Below, piece after piece: positions 42,303 through 47,288 of a DNA stretch of 64,000 bases. The notes below the pieces were generated by a model. It searched no databases and was not told the DNA's origin. It saw nothing but the letters and a program-made list of their open reading frames with translations. The translations under genes were made by a program, and so were the position numbers. The stretch's first letter is position 1. The number at the start of each line of letters is the position of its first letter. The DNA comes from an uncultured Candidatus Saccharibacteria bacterium (GTDB lineage: Bacteria; Patescibacteriota; Minisyncoccia; Phycocordibacterales; UBA9973): positions 71,058 to 135,057 of the forward strand of contig CAZDGL010000001.1 of assembly GCA_964505155.1 (NCBI GenBank), read 5' to 3'.

Positions 42303-42390
42303 GCACCAGACAGGATTCGAACCTGTGACGAGGGTTTCCCCTATCCGATTAAGAGTCGGAGCCGTTCGGCCAACTACGGTAACTGGTGCA
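42303..42390 (-). tRNA. class-II (long variable arm) tRNA with anticodon CTT (Lys-type); no encoded CCA
   Basis: Acceptor GCACCAG/CTGGTGC, U73; anticodon arm TCCGA-CTCTTAA-TCGGA; variable arm AGGG-GAAA-CCCT; T-arm ACAGG-TTCGAAT-CCTGT. Confidence 0.45.
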
Positions 42391-42392
42391 TA

Positions 42393-42755
42393 TTAGTCAT
42401 CGATATATAGCTCAGAAGTTTTGAGTGAGTCAACCACTTTCATTTCTTCAATAATATTGAATGCAGCTATCGCATCCGAAAGCTTCGTGATTGCATCAAA
42501 CAATGCGTCTGGACCCGGATTAACGAGAATGAATGCATGATCCGATTCCGAGGATGTGATGGTGATTGAAAACTGGTTGGTTCTCAATATCTCACATTCA
42601 AACATAAATCCAGCATTGATGATCTCGTCTGCCTTCTTGCAAACATCTTCCCTAATCGGAAGAAGCTCATCAGAAGAATGTCCATACGGCATTTCGTAAA
42701 ACGTAGCAGGAATTACGAAATTATTGTGGTCACCAGAATAGAAAAAATGTGGCAT
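42393..42755 (-). CDS. hypothetical protein
   Basis: 120-aa ORF. Confidence 0.35.
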   Translation of the reverse strand: MPHFFYSGDHNNFVIPATFYEMPYGHSSDELLPIREDVCKKADEIINAGFMFECEILRTNQFSITITSSESDHAFILVNPGPDALFDAITKLSDAIAAFNIIEEMKVVDSLKTSELYIDD

Positions 42756-42779
42756 TTCTCACTCACTTTCATTTCAAAA

Positions 42780-42832
42780 TGGAGTACCCGGTGGGATTCG
42801 AACCGACGTGGAGGTTACCCTCTGTGGATTAA
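42780..42832 (-). pseudogene. tRNA remnant (T-arm + 3' acceptor + CCA only)
   Basis: TGG-A-GTACCCG-GTGGG-ATTCGAA-CCGAC on plus, but no complementary 5' acceptor; adjacent 8-bp hairpin GTGAAGTG/CACTTCAC instead of D/anticodon arms. Confidence 0.25.
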
Positions 42833-42883
42833 TGCGTGAAGTGCCTCAACACTTCACTGATAAGTCCACCGCTATCGACCTAC

Positions 42884-43192
42884 TCAGCCAACCGCACGTA
42901 TTTTTGCATACGTTCCATCTATACGACATTTTTCAATATGGCATGATGTACATAACAACTGACATTTTTGAACTTCTACCCAAAATATCTTTTCAGAAGC
43001 CGAACATGCTTCGGCTATTGACATTATTTTAGTGTGACGCTCTATATGATCAAATTCAAGATTTTCTTTAGTAGAACATTTTACACATTTTCCACCCAGA
43101 AAATCAACTGCTTTCTCTCGTCTTTTCTTCCACCTCTTCTTCATATATTCATTCATATATGAATTATATACATTTTTATCTTTATGTGGCAT
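42884..43192 (-). CDS. HNH homing endonuclease
   Basis: CVKCS...EFDHIERH...CTSCHIEKC HNH/zinc motifs; 102 aa. Confidence 0.65.
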   Translation of the reverse strand: MPHKDKNVYNSYMNEYMKKRWKKRREKAVDFLGGKCVKCSTKENLEFDHIERHTKIMSIAEACSASEKIFWVEVQKCQLLCTSCHIEKCRIDGTYAKIRAVG

Positions 43193-43249
43193 TCATACCT
43201 GTGGTAGAGTGATCTTCATTTACCGACCACTCTACCACAATAAGCTTAT

Positions 43250-43795
43250 CTACGCAACCTTTTTCTTTCTGTTCTTGCGCTTAGCTGTGTTTTTACCAAA
43301 CTCTCTGAATCTGTCAGCAGCAAAGGATGCTGCCCACGCATCAGGCTTAGCTAGAGGAACCACGTTGCAGACACCCTTGATATAACCAATGGCTTCCTGC
43401 AGAACCACGCTTGAACCATACTTCCGGTTCGTGTTGACGTCGATGTGAACCTCGATTTCACGATCCTCAATTACGTCCGCAAGCTGAAGATACATCTCAG
43501 CAGTCTTGTAGACTTCGTTCATGAGTCTCATCTTTGGTTCGGACTTCTTCTTATCGTAATCGATCTCCTCTACGATCTTACCCCAGACGGAGCAACCGTG
43601 ATTACCATCGATGTGGACGACAACAGCAGTAGTATAACGTGCTACCCACTTTTCATCCTTACGAAATCGATATGAGTCAGTACCGATGTAGATCTTGGTC
43701 TCCTTGGACTGACGGTCGATGAAATCCTTTAGATCTTGTATATCGTCAATTCTCCTCATTATATCTCTCCTTTCATGGAGATTATTTAGCTCCAA
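43250..43795 (-). CDS. putative RNase H-like fold nuclease
   Basis: 181 aa; KIYIGTDSYRF...VVVHIDGNHGC...EVHIDVNTN acidic clusters; assignment tentative. Confidence 0.25.
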   Translation of the reverse strand: MELNNLHERRDIMRRIDDIQDLKDFIDRQSKETKIYIGTDSYRFRKDEKWVARYTTAVVVHIDGNHGCSVWGKIVEEIDYDKKKSEPKMRLMNEVYKTAEMYLQLADVIEDREIEVHIDVNTNRKYGSSVVLQEAIGYIKGVCNVVPLAKPDAWAASFAADRFREFGKNTAKRKNRKKKVA

Positions 43796-43927
43796 TTCAC
43801 ACGATTGAGATCAGCGAACCAATCATCTCCCATACCATGGAAGAACACCTGATTACCACGAAGCTTGTGCATATGTCAACCTCCTTATTGATTTGAATCA
43901 ATATCTTAGATTCCAACAAACGTCAAG

Positions 43928-44005
43928 TGGTGCTCCCAACCGGACTCGAACCGATATCACTCTCTTACGAGGAGAGGGTTTTGCCACAATTATCACTATA
44001 GGAGC
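43928..44005 (-). tRNA. tRNA-Thr (CGT)
   Basis: CCA encoded; acceptor GCTCCTA/TGGGAGC; anticodon arm CTCTC-CTCGTAA-GAGAG; T-loop TTCGAGT. Confidence 0.6.
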
Positions 44006-45456: not shown

Positions 45457-45524
45457 GCGGGAACTGGATTCGAACCAGTGTCTCTTGGTAATGAGCCAAG
45501 CAAGGAACCTCTCCTCTACCCCGC
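45457..45524 (-). tRNA. minimal tRNA-like gene, anticodon CAT, truncated D-arm, no CCA (probably degenerate)
   Basis: About 69 nt; acceptor GCGGGG/TCCCGC; anticodon arm CTTGG-CTCATTA-CCAAG; T-arm CTGG-TTCGAAT-CCAG; D-arm reduced to 3-bp stem/5-nt loop. Confidence 0.3.
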
Positions 45525-45575
45525 TATATATTTAGCATACTTATCTCACCAACAACCGAAAGTCAACATCTTTTT

Positions 45576-45950
45576 TCAGTTTGGGAGATCTTTTAAGTTT
45601 GGCACCCACATGTGCCGAGTGAAAACAAATTCGTATGAACCATCTAGTGAATGATTATCCATCCATCCGACATTCAGACCGCTCTCGTATCCAGAAAACT
45701 CCTCAGAGATATCGAATACGTATGTTCCTAGTGTTATACCCACTTTTGTGAGCAATTGCAAGCGAATTGTTCGGGCTTCGAGGAATTTAAAGGACTGCTG
45801 CTCAGTGATAGTCCGAACAATATAAATCTTCTTGTTGACAAAATCCACACTAACAGCATGTGAATAATGGTCTTCTACATCATCATAATAGATGACATAT
45901 CCATTACTTAGAATGCTCTTGTTATCATATTCGTCAAAGCTCTTAGTCAT
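45576..45950 (-). CDS. hypothetical protein
   Basis: 124-aa ORF. Confidence 0.35.
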   Translation of the reverse strand: MTKSFDEYDNKSILSNGYVIYYDDVEDHYSHAVSVDFVNKKIYIVRTITEQQSFKFLEARTIRLQLLTKVGITLGTYVFDISEEFSGYESGLNVGWMDNHSLDGSYEFVFTRHMWVPNLKDLPN

Positions 45951-46293
45951 CGATTATCTCCCATTTGGTAAATTCAAACAAATACTCTCCGTGAAGAAGT
46001 TCATCCTTGGTATACCACGAAGCGCAGATCTCAGTAGGAGTAGCGCTCTTGATATAAAAACGATAATGCAACCCTTCGGTCTCATCTTCACCATTCAGGT
46101 AAATCAAATCAATGATCTTGGCATCCAGAAAATCCATATTAGGACGAGTCTTTACCAGACGAGTCAGGGTTATCTGTTTGACCAAAAAATTGATATGAAT
46201 GTAGTTCGTAGTCGGATCCGATTCTCCATCGTATTCTACGATGAATTGATCGGACATTTGATCTTCGTTACGCAGCGAACCAGATTTCTTCAT
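45943..46293 (-). CDS. hypothetical protein (paralogous fold to 45576-45950?)
   Basis: 116-aa ORF; both neighbours share ...HINFL/VDFVNKKI..LTRL/IVRTITEQ... pattern. Confidence 0.35.
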   Translation of the reverse strand: MKKSGSLRNEDQMSDQFIVEYDGESDPTTNYIHINFLVKQITLTRLVKTRPNMDFLDAKIIDLIYLNGEDETEGLHYRFYIKSATPTEICASWYTKDELLHGEYLFEFTKWEIIDD

Positions 46294-46570
46294 TCAGGCT
46301 CGCATAGGTTTCTGGTAGGTCTCGAAGTCCAGCATGGATCTCAGAATGGCAATTAGAACAGAGAAGAATACACTTCCGTAGCCCTTCGGCAATCCCTGAT
46401 GGACTTAATCCCTTGGAAAAGGCTTTTGATAGATTGAATTCTTTGGTGGTGGGATCTATATGGTGAAAATGAAGTGCATGGACCGTTCTATTGTAGCCAC
46501 AACACTGGCATCCACCTCCCATAGATTCTACTGCACGTATTTTTAGAGGTTGACGCTTGACTTGTCTCAA
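46268..46570 (-). CDS. HNH homing endonuclease
   Basis: CQCCGY...HHIDPTTKEFNLSKA...CSNCHSEIH. Confidence 0.65.
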   Translation of the reverse strand: MRQVKRQPLKIRAVESMGGGCQCCGYNRTVHALHFHHIDPTTKEFNLSKAFSKGLSPSGIAEGLRKCILLCSNCHSEIHAGLRDLPETYASLNEEIWFAA

Positions 46571-46640
46571 TATCTACTCCGAGTTTAGTACTCGGAGTTA
46601 TTTATCTTATCTTGTCAATGGTTTACATCATTTTGAAAAT

Positions 46641-46715
46641 TGGTTCCCTCGAAACGATTCGAACGTTTACCTTCATATTCAGAGTATGAAAATCTGCCAA
46701 TTAATCTACAAGGGA
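46641..46715 (-). tRNA. tRNA-Gln (CTG)
   Basis: CCA encoded; U1-A72 start as in bacterial tRNA-Gln; anticodon arm TCATA-CTCTGAA-TATGA. Confidence 0.6.
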
Positions 46716-46729
46716 TCATAATCTAAATT

Positions 46730-46805
46730 TGGTTCCCCTTGGTGGATTCGAACCACCATCGCATGGATTCAAAGGCCAGCATTCTACCTGTTAAACTAGA
46801 GGGGA
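46730..46805 (-). tRNA. tRNA-Gln (TTG), weak anticodon stem
   Basis: CCA encoded; canonical 76-nt register gives loop CTTTGAA (TTG) but anticodon stem has C27.T43 and C31.T39 mismatches. Confidence 0.45.
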
Positions 46806-46823
46806 ATATTCTCTATCACTTCA

Positions 46824-47288
46824 TCAAATGTCATCACATCTCTCATCGGTTTTTAGAACGTATGTAGTCCAGATTTTCTGACCATCACGAATTACGTTGT
46901 GCATTTCCGTGATATGCCAAGTTACATCATCAACATCATTTATATCTAAAAAGTATTCAATGTCATCATCCAGCTTTTCATCTAAGAGTACTTCAATTTC
47001 TTCCTTAGACTCAGCGTCGAAGGTATCACTAAATGAACCACTAACTCTAAAATCCACAAAATACTTCTTCATAACAATACTTTCTAAGAATTGGCTGACA
47101 AGGTAGGGATCGAACCTACGCCACCTTTCGATGGGCTCCCGGTTAACAGCCGGACACCTATACCACTCGGTCACTTGCCAATATGAGTTATTTATATACC
47201 CTTTTGAATGAATGTCAAGAGACTTCTTCAAAATGTCTTTTAACGTTATCTGGAAGTCCTTCATAATACTCATCACGTGTCCACACAT
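46824..47288 (-). CDS. hypothetical acidic protein
   Basis: 154-aa ORF. Confidence 0.35.
   Translation of the reverse strand: MCGHVMSIMKDFQITLKDILKKSLDIHSKGYINNSYWQVTEWYRCPAVNREPIERWRRFDPYLVSQFLESIVMKKYFVDFRVSGSFSDTFDAESKEEIEVLLDEKLDDDIEYFLDINDVDDVTWHITEMHNVIRDGQKIWTTYVLKTDERCDDI
47092..47180 (-). tRNA. class-II tRNA with anticodon GTT (Asn-type) and G73
   Basis: CCA encoded; perfect canonical register: acceptor TGGCAAG/CTTGTCA, D-stem ACC/GGT, anticodon arm TCCGG-CTGTTAA-CCGGG, 18-nt variable arm, T-arm GTAGG-TTCGATC-CCTAC. Confidence 0.5.

Follow-up and report, generated by a model that had tools for sequence, protein, structure and literature searches.

Does a long variable arm decide which amino acid a transfer RNA (tRNA) carries when its anticodon names another? 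The question is raised by two tRNA genes in a 64,000-nucleotide (nt) stretch of phage DNA, hereafter the window (contig CAZDGL010000001.1 of assembly GCA_964505155.1, positions 71,058 to 135,057). In bacteria, the long variable arm is held by textbooks to be reserved for Leu, Ser, Tyr and Sec tRNAs, but the two genes combine it with the Asn anticodon GTT and the Lys anticodon CTT. A first-pass annotation, made from the sequence alone, suggested that they might insert Ser or Leu at AAG and AAY codons, or might be damaged copies. We found that both cloverleaves are intact and, from comparison with phage relatives, that the identity marks at the acceptor end follow the anticodon and not the arm; judged by these marks, cognate charging of both tRNAs is most likely. 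Taken as a whole, it appears probable that both are functional elongator tRNAs of cognate identity (Asn and Lys) with a hairpin expansion of the variable region, together with the charging, codon supply and role of the arm proposed below.

ARAGORN and the Rfam model RF00005 agree on two tRNAs with long variable arms and place their anticodons at the same positions (47145-47147 for GTT, 42351-42353 for CTT), and the acceptor, anticodon, variable and T helices of each also emerge from thermodynamic folding in which no tRNA model is used. Every helix is intact in both genes (acceptor 7 bp, T stem 5 bp), and the T loop, U33, A37 and G18-G19 have their canonical form. Alignment to the Rfam covariance model, a kind of test that had been named as able to refute the observation, left the GTT and CTT anticodons where they were and scored both genes above the gathering score of 29 (51.6 bits and E = 1e-10 for the GTT gene, 39.5 bits and E = 2e-7 for the CTT gene, in local scans).

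The GTT gene (89 nt according to ARAGORN) proved to be exactly as first described: its 7-bp acceptor (47174-47180 with 47096-47102; U1-A72, G2-C71, G3.U70) is followed by G73 at 47095 and an encoded CCA at 47092-47094, and it has a 3-bp D stem, a 5-bp anticodon stem, the loop CTGTTAA and an 18-nt variable arm. C11:G24 is present in the ARAGORN structure. The variable arm forms a 5-6-bp stem that is closed by a GNRA tetraloop (GAAA) and leaves a 3' spacer of 0-1 nt. With this hairpin and the short D stem, the gene departs from a class-I body, which has a 4-5-nt variable loop and a 4-bp D stem, and it is the only one of the two with the Ser-type combination of a 5-7-bp arm, a 3' spacer of about 1 nt and a Ser-type D arm.

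For the CTT gene, the earlier description was right about U73 (at 42302), the absence of an encoded CCA and the loop CTCTTAA, but its coordinates (42303-42390) were off by 1-2 nt, and it overlooked that the linker between the 7-bp acceptor and the 4-bp D stem has three nucleotides (TTA) instead of the usual two. ARAGORN draws the gene as 89 nt (42301-42389, minus strand). Its variable arm, with 4 bp and a 4-nt tail, is not of the Ser type and resembles in geometry that of bacterial tRNA-Tyr. The Rfam alignment shifts the acceptor by one position, which would give a His-like G-1:C73; this reading was rejected, since CCA-encoding relatives show that the acceptor has 7 bp and is followed by a 3-nt linker.

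Compared with canonical bacterial tRNA-Asn and tRNA-Lys, the two genes share the loops CUGUUAA and CUCUUAA, U1:A72 and G73 in the Asn case, and a cognate-like composition of the acceptor, anticodon stem and T arm. They differ in having a hairpin of 17-18 nt instead of a variable region of 4-5 nt, in a class-II-like D arm (a 3-bp D stem or a 3-nt linker at positions 8-9) and, in the Lys case, in U73 instead of A73. With the bacterial class-II tRNAs (Ser, Leu and Tyr) they share the long arm and a matching D-arm architecture, the Asn gene being similar to Ser in its D arm and stem length and the Lys scaffold to Tyr (1 nt, 3-4 bp, 3-4-nt tail). However, unlike these tRNAs, they have Asn and Lys anticodons, no A73, acceptors unlike that of Ser, and no conservation of the Ser marks.

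Amino acid identity

The GTT gene carries the marks of tRNA-Asn, namely, GUU in a 7-nt loop, G73 and U1:A72, the last of which is a determinant for GatCAB in the transamidation route to Asn. Its acceptor, which begins with U1:A72, is not of the Ser type (G1:C72 with G2:C71), and the A73 typical of Leu and Tyr is absent from both genes (G73 and U73). By the identity rules of Escherichia coli, leucyl-tRNA synthetase (LeuRS) needs A73.

These marks are a property of the family and not only of the window gene. Among the matches listed for long GTT tRNAs (116 scored for G73), G73 is present in 93% and U1:A72 in 68%, which is close to the 89% and 66% of the short tRNA-Asn genes from the same loci; phage tRNA-Ser, by comparison, has G1:C72 in 86% and U:A never, and A73 is found in 147 of 149 Leu and 51 of 52 Tyr tRNAs of phages. 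A search for orthologues in related phages, which had been advised as a check of function, did find conserved relatives. In an alignment of 18 orthologues of the GTT gene, 96% of the cells are paired and 17 of the 20 pairs show compensatory changes; U1:A72 is kept in 18 of 18 and G73 is kept as well, whereas pairs 2-7 show three to six pair types each. Pair 2 is CG in 10, GC in 5 and UG in 3, so G2:C71, a Ser mark, is not conserved, and neither is the long variable stem. Identity for alanyl-tRNA synthetase (AlaRS) through G3.U70 was considered and rejected, with G.U at that pair in only 2 of 18.

We also trained a naive-Bayes isotype classifier on 1,445 phage tRNAs, using 60 structural positions with the anticodon and the variable region masked (leave-one-out accuracy 76%; recall 96% for Ser and 92% for class-II Leu). 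Among the 105 long GTT tRNAs classified from the matches listed, 71 were assigned to Asn and none to Ser or class-II Leu, and the window GTT gene scored -55.3 for Asn and -64.1 for Ser. Its regions do not speak with one voice: the acceptor with the discriminator (N73) favors Asn by 12 nats (log-likelihood -16.0 vs. -28.0), as do the T arm and the anticodon stem, whereas positions 8-26 favor Ser by 8 nats (-12.9 vs. -20.7 for Asn). By these likelihoods the gene is chimeric, with a Ser-like D and variable core and an otherwise Asn-like body; the "Ser-like body" attributed to it earlier thus holds for the D arm and variable core but not for the acceptor, anticodon stem and T arm. The CTT gene is likewise divided, with a Lys-like acceptor and a Tyr-like D arm.

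The CTT scaffold (3-nt linker, D loop AGTTGGYCGA, hairpin with a 4-nt tail) provides a more direct comparison, as it carries different anticodons. A scan for it that was blind to the variable region and the anticodon recovered 23 viral loci, all with variable arms of 15-18 nt, and GTT, CTT and TTT are among the anticodons that the scaffold carries. Where the anticodon is GTT, the discriminator is G73 in 9 of 9 and the first pair U1:A72 in 8 of 9; where it is CTT or TTT, the discriminator is A73 in 11 of 12. Related scaffolds have U73 for Cys, C73 for His and G73 for Trp. On these shared scaffolds, the discriminator changes along with the anticodon, in exact agreement with the standard identity rules of the synthetases.

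The window CTT gene has the CUU anticodon loop of tRNA-Lys together with U73 in place of A73. Long CTT tRNAs in general have A73 in 69%, U73 in 31% and G never, and U73 also occurs in 12% of the short phage tRNA-Lys(CUU) genes. Ordinary tRNA-Lys(CUU) genes with U73, an encoded CCA and a normal length recur in phages that carry the window-like Asn subfamily, where they have 76 nt, and in Mesorhizobium phage Cp1R7A-A1. Because U73 recurs in such normal, CCA-bearing genes, it is not a sign of decay in the window gene.

If AAG or AAY had been reassigned, these codons should align with another residue at conserved positions of the phage proteins. We compared 14 window proteins with those of pelagiphage HTVC008M, Methylophilales phage Melnitz-3 and Synechococcus phage BUCT-ZZ01. 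AAG aligned with Lys in 36% (next was Arg with 9%), AAC with Asn in 31% and AAT with Asn in 28%; Ser reached at most 9% at any of the three codons, and Leu was outside the top five. AAG, AAC and AAT together make up about 10% of the codons in the long open reading frames (ORFs), with AAG used over AAA by 2:1. On this codon alignment, wholesale reassignment of AAG or AAY is excluded, and the window genes use AAG as Lys and AAY as Asn. Low-level mistranslation would be compatible with the alignment, but the two tRNAs probably do not rewrite the genetic code.

The arm as an expansion segment and its distribution

If the arm does not set identity, it may have been added to tRNAs that already had one. 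When the 5' half of the GTT gene was used as a query that ignored the variable region, 21 distinct tRNA-Asn genes of one lineage were recovered. Their variable region is 4-6 nt long in 5 genes and 12-18 nt in 16, and GAAA, GTAA, GCAA and others occur as loops. One of the relatives (L221) matches the window gene in D-arm stem and D-loop motif (ACC-GAGTGGTA...-GGT), but its D loop is 1 nt shorter and its variable loop has 6 nt. Variable regions of 4-18 nt within a single tRNA-Asn lineage show that the hairpin is an expansion segment and that the gene is not a Ser tRNA with a mutated anticodon. In most members of the family the variable stem has 3-4 bp and the tail 3-4 nt, which is closer to Tyr than to Ser.

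To follow the arm further, IMG/VR was scanned with two degenerate patterns consisting of the anticodon loop, then GAAA, then the T loop. The CTT pattern gave 40 loci, 39 of which hold a long-arm tRNA-Lys(CTT), and the GTT pattern gave at least 118 long-arm tRNA-Asn(GTT) in at least 120 matching stretches; as the patterns demanded both GAAA and GGTTCGA, the conservation of these two motifs is circular, and the counts are biased and lower bounds. The flanks of GAAA were left unconstrained. In the GTT family, among the matches listed, 92-99% of the genes pair at the three positions next to GAAA, with five or six pair types, whereas sliding the partner by one lowers the share to 40-49%; in the CTT family the flanking pairs are paired in 97-100%; over both families, 92-100% are Watson-Crick or G.U with four to six pair types per position, against 24-55% with the partner slid. 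Pairing that is kept with varied pair types and reduced on sliding shows that the helix of the variable arm is maintained by compensatory change.

Several of the carriers are cultured phages. Mesorhizobium phage Cp1R7A-A1 has two 88-nt Lys homologues and one 88-nt Asn homologue with long arms, and in Xanthomonas phage X1, long and short versions of both Asn and Lys tRNAs occur side by side. The long and short copies of phage X1 were considered as recent duplicates, a possibility that was rejected since their bodies differ throughout. Altogether, 27 loci carry long and short isoacceptors together. Sphingobium phage Lacusarx and Xanthomonas phage XacN1 have homologues too. In all four phages these are annotated as tRNA-Asn or tRNA-Lys, and in Erythrobacter phages L02 and XM05 the matches have no annotation. 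GenBank records already hold such genes under plain isotype names. A full-text literature search, limited to the library searched, found no description of long-arm Asn or Lys tRNAs in phages, and the class is apparently undescribed so far.

Cellular genomes contribute little. In 185,579 species genomes, the Lys pattern was found in about 10 bacteria, at least six of which are Alphaproteobacteria, and each bacterial match lies inside an array of at least three and mostly 6-16 tRNA genes within 8 kb. Archaeal matches were ordinary intron-containing tRNA-Lys genes and were discarded as irrelevant. One bacterial contig, a scaffold of Pseudaminobacter soli (L194), carries long-arm tRNAs for Asn, Lys(UUU) and Lys(CUU); at 900-4100, beside this array, are NAD-salvage genes (nicotinamide phosphoribosyltransferase and nicotinamide mononucleotide adenylyltransferase/NUDIX) with strong PHROG matches, and the array is probably a prophage or co-assembled phage DNA. 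The two window genes belong to a widespread, phage-restricted structural variant of tRNA-Asn and tRNA-Lys.

The arm is also lost in phages. Next to the Asn and Lys genes, the window carries three tRNA-Leu genes (CAA, GAG and TAG) with a 5-6-nt variable loop and a class-I body, which keep A73, CCA and a Leu-type D arm. In the phage loci that were fetched, 70 tRNA-Leu are short and 79 long, and all 70 of the short ones have A73. Long-arm Asn and Lys tRNAs and armless Leu tRNAs with A73 in the same array indicate that arm and identity are uncoupled in both directions.

Other isotypes show the arm as well. Phage arrays hold long-arm tRNAs for Cys(GCA), Thr(UGU), Trp(CCA), Met(CAU), Ile(UAU) and Lys(UUU) at many loci (for example, L098, 4726-4809), and readers of codons starting with A seem to be over-represented among them. 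A scaffold with the D-loop motif GGYYGA, sampled for Lys, Thr, Cys and Trp, has cognate-type discriminators (U73 for Cys, G73 for Trp, and also C73 for His). Besides a long-arm tRNA-Asn, one viral array (L005; IMGVR_UViG_3300028805_000058) contains a long-arm tRNA of 93 nt (7800-7892) with the amber anticodon CUA and G73 as its discriminator, as well as one (5330-5402) whose anticodon loop has 8 nt ("aaag").

Possible role of the arm and rival explanations

We propose that a short hairpin, often capped by a GNRA loop, expands the variable region and that the D arm has been adjusted to a class-II-type core that accommodates it. The GUU tRNA would be charged by the asparaginyl-tRNA synthetase (AsnRS) of the host or by a non-discriminating aspartyl-tRNA synthetase (AspRS) with GatCAB, and the CUU tRNA by the host lysyl-tRNA synthetase (LysRS), which would read the anticodon and discriminator. 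So charged, the tRNAs would supply the very frequent AAG and AAY codons of the phage. The extra arm may have been selected as it would alter the shape of the tRNA near the junction of the anticodon stem and the elbow and leave synthetase identity untouched. Gain of the arm, like its loss from tRNA-Leu, could make the phage tRNAs poor substrates for host factors that target tRNAs, such as nucleases of the anticodon or anticodon stem.

Evasion of this kind as the arm's purpose is the step that we trust least, and by analogy with known systems we put it forward as a tentative idea that is somewhat more likely to be wrong than right. It is favored by the uncoupling of arm and identity in both directions, which fits selection to differ in shape from the host isoacceptor better than a specific positive role of the hairpin, together with the repeated targeting of tRNA-Lys by anti-phage tRNases. 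The AriB nuclease of PARIS cuts host tRNA-Lys at 40/41, and a tRNA-Lys variant of phage T5 evades it (PMC11464382); PrrC (PrrC170) is countered by the tRNA-Lys of phage SP15, and the T5 tRNA-Tyr counters retron-Eco7 (PMC11555353); a bacterial Schlafen protein cuts tRNA-Lys(UUU) (PMC13056530). The AriB cut site adjoins the point at which the variable arm emerges. Like these defense-evading tRNAs, the window genes are phage isoacceptors of commonly attacked tRNAs, especially Lys, that differ structurally from the host copy. However, the documented cases use substitutions in the anticodon stem-loop or overexpression and not an added arm, and the link is one that we infer.

A broader version is more doubtful still. 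Phage arrays may deliberately uncouple shape from identity, adding the arm to tRNAs with anticodon-reading synthetases (Asn, Lys, Thr, Cys, Trp and Met) and removing it from tRNA-Leu, whose synthetase can do without it, so that the tRNAs are charged correctly by the host but remain unseen by immune nucleases or by the phage's own enzymes that deplete host tRNAs. If this is true, shape-shifted phage tRNAs would be a general structural class of counter-defense. Either version offers defense biology a testable hypothesis for the escape of phage tRNAs from tRNA-cleaving systems, which are often aimed at tRNA-Lys, and Mesorhizobium phage Cp1R7A-A1 and Xanthomonas phage X1 are cultured carriers suited to such a test.

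The strongest rival, which we nevertheless regard as unlikely, accepts functional cognate tRNAs but denies the arm any independent function: the arm would be an expansion that is tolerated, or a class-II relic, for example of a remolded tRNA-Tyr (GUA to GUU is one mutation), with the hairpin kept only because an unstructured insert would disturb folding. The continuous range of variable-region lengths in the Asn lineage and its varied loop sequences fit this explanation, as do the linker, D loop and arm geometry that the Lys scaffold shares with phage tRNA-Tyr, and GNRA loops are common in the variable arms of ordinary phage Ser and Leu tRNAs too. However, hundreds of divergent phage contigs carry the arm, mainly on a few isotypes; long and short isoacceptors coexist in phage X1 and elsewhere; the same arrays strip the arm from tRNA-Leu; and outside tRNA arrays, cellular genomes hardly contain the Lys form. 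Together, these observations argue for phage-specific selection.

Several results weigh against the interpretation that we prefer, namely, cognate tRNAs with a selected arm. The window GTT gene lies at the Ser-like end of its family in its D arm, 5-6-bp stem, 0-1-nt spacer, G73, G2:C71 and C11:G24, and with such features some cross-charging by seryl-tRNA synthetase (SerRS) may occur. The masked classifier is ambiguous for the window CTT gene (Asn -58.2, Arg -59.8, Lys -59.8) and assigns 13 of 35 long CTT tRNAs to Tyr-like bodies, and the U73 of the window gene, which also lacks CCA, is the only exception among the 12 Lys tRNAs of the closest scaffold. AsnRS, AspRS and LysRS, which belong to class IIb, approach the tRNA from the side of the variable loop, and a long arm might interfere with them. 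The bias of the two pattern scans belongs to the same list.

A second rival holds that the arm recruits SerRS (or LeuRS, AlaRS or tyrosyl-tRNA synthetase (TyrRS)), so that Ser or another amino acid is inserted at AAY and AAG, either as deliberate statistical mistranslation or as a change of the code. SerRS ignores the anticodon, and the Ser-like features just listed, with the G3.U70 wobble, would suit this mechanism. There are also precedents. The nematode nev-tRNAs, which were leucylated in vitro (PMC3333845), and other eukaryotic tRNAs with non-canonical variable arms combine class-II architecture with the anticodons of class-I amino acids, but the nev-tRNAs keep Leu identity, which follows the body, whereas in the window genes the marks follow the anticodon and the carriers are phages of bacteria. 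The allo-tRNAs, or (8/4) tRNAs, which insert Ser or Ala in E. coli (Mukai et al., PMC5389517), are irregular long-arm tRNAs with diverse anticodons from metagenomes and tRNA clusters of alphaproteobacterial phages; however, they have an 8/4 or 9/3 branch and a Ser-, Ala- or Sec-like identity, whereas both window genes are 7/5, a register fixed by CCA-encoding relatives, with discriminators of the cognate type. With A73 in neither gene, LeuRS and TyrRS are excluded by the standard identity rules. The insertion of Ser or Leu that had been proposed for these genes is disfavored by the strongly un-Ser-like GTT acceptor, by the marks that the orthologues keep and those they do not, by the relatives with short variable loops, by the Tyr-like arm of most members, by the discriminators that track the anticodon and by the alignment of the abundant AAG and AAY codons with Lys and Asn, and we consider this rival very improbable.

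The view that the genes are pseudogenes damaged by a homing endonuclease, or non-translational tRNA-like RNAs (a tRNase decoy or a processing signal), has in its favor the GIY-YIG endonuclease gene that adjoins the CTT gene and this gene's lack of CCA, U73, non-standard linker and RF00005 score, the third-lowest among the array tRNA genes that reach the threshold, but it is hardly credible in light of the intact helices with compensatory changes, the canonical loops, the conservation of linker, hairpin and tail across the 23 scaffold loci, and the recurrence of U73 tRNA-Lys(CUU) with CCA in related phages.

For annotation, such genes should not be taken as signals of recoding or as pseudogenes. 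In phage tRNAs, the variable arm behaves as a movable module that has been gained by Asn, Lys and some other tRNAs and lost by Leu, while the acceptor marks stay cognate. These are natural tRNA bodies that tolerate an inserted hairpin, and they may be useful for aptamer-tagged or orthogonal tRNAs.

The phage, its tRNA array and neighboring features

The window phage is a distant T4-like myovirus, whose gp6-type baseplate wedge protein is 28-38% identical to homologues from cyanophages, pelagiphages and Methylophilales phages. On the minus strand, 21 tRNA genes and a permuted transfer-messenger RNA (tmRNA) lie between 38.2 and 51.0 kb, with small ORFs and endonuclease genes in between (Table 1). 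No close relative was found: the only match of the tRNA region to GenBank phages by megablast was a tRNA-Leu of Gordonia phages, and an exact-pattern metagenome scan for the window Lys tRNA gave no matches. Three IMG/VR loci that were reached through a neighboring protein (52-54% identity) have no tRNAs within 10 kb, which indicates that synteny is not conserved. The nearest relatives of the window tRNA-Asn are in Mesorhizobium, Sphingobium and Erythrobacter phages, and this origin, together with the permuted tmRNA, suggests an alphaproteobacterial host.

Table 1. Coordinates of the two long-arm tRNA genes and of other features in the window
Feature	Position	Strand	Basis or description
tRNA-Asn(GUU), expanded variable arm	47092..47180	minus	ARAGORN; Rfam RF00005; best class Asn in masked isotype classifier; orthologue alignment
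Variable-arm hairpin of tRNA-Asn	47120..47137	minus	18 nt, AGCCCATCGAAAGGTGGC; A-GCC(C)ATC-GAAA-GGTGGC; read from sequence and minimum free energy (MFE) fold
tRNA-Lys(CUU), expanded variable arm	42302..42389	minus	ARAGORN; RF00005, 39.5 bits; MFE z-score -2.4; scaffold relatives in 23 viral loci
Variable-arm hairpin of tRNA-Lys	42327..42343	minus	T-AGGG-GAAA-CCCT-CGTC: 1 nt, 4 bp, GNRA loop, 4-nt 3' tail; read from sequence
tRNA-Leu(CAA), 5-nt variable loop	38308..38384	minus	ARAGORN structure; Rfam, 56.2 bits
tRNA-Leu(TAA), class II	39671-39763	minus	
tRNA-Leu(GAG), short variable loop	41139-41216	minus	ARAGORN structure
tRNA-Leu(TAG), short variable loop	41222-41298	minus	ARAGORN structure
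GIY-YIG/NUMOD3 homing endonuclease ORF	41592..42245	minus	Pfam SegE_GIY-YIG and NUMOD3; phrog_314, E = 8e-46
Perfect 17-bp hairpin (inverted repeat) between tRNA-Lys and GIY-YIG ORF	42251..42297	minus	-26.2 kcal/mol; z = -7.75; 0/200 shuffles fold as well
tRNA-Asp(GTC)	44766-44841	minus	no surviving RF00005 match; tRNA-Sec match, 25 bits
tRNA-Met	45452-45526	minus	ARAGORN
tRNA with 8-nt anticodon loop	50072-50146	minus	ARAGORN; Rfam, 54.8 bits
Permuted (two-piece type) tmRNA	50656-51022	minus	RF04321, 69 bits
RNA ligase gene	56781-57884	minus	phrog_968, E = 2e-94

Homing endonucleases had been placed beside both tRNA genes. This is correct for the CTT gene, with the GIY-YIG ORF lying 56 nt downstream of it, but none of the three ORFs scanned near the GTT gene (46824-47288, 47215-47424 and 47621-48298) matched an endonuclease. 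The endonuclease beside the Lys tRNA is context only and stands outside the function of the tRNA. The perfect hairpin between the two may be a terminator or a processing structure.

The tmRNA encodes the tag peptide VADNDNVPAYARDLRVAA. The RNA ligase gene lies a few kilobases from the tRNA array and could be relevant to the repair of tRNAs after attack by anticodon nucleases. Three further tRNA genes of the array are unusual. One has the 8-nt anticodon loop CAUGUGAA (ARAGORN, "tgtg"), U73 and no CCA, and may be a His-type tRNA (GUG) that lacks G-1, like those of Alphaproteobacteria, or else a tRNA prone to frameshifting. The tRNA-Asp(GTC) has the aberrant T loop ATCGTTA, and the tRNA-Met, which lacks CCA, is drawn by ARAGORN with an 8-bp acceptor that contains an A.A mismatch.

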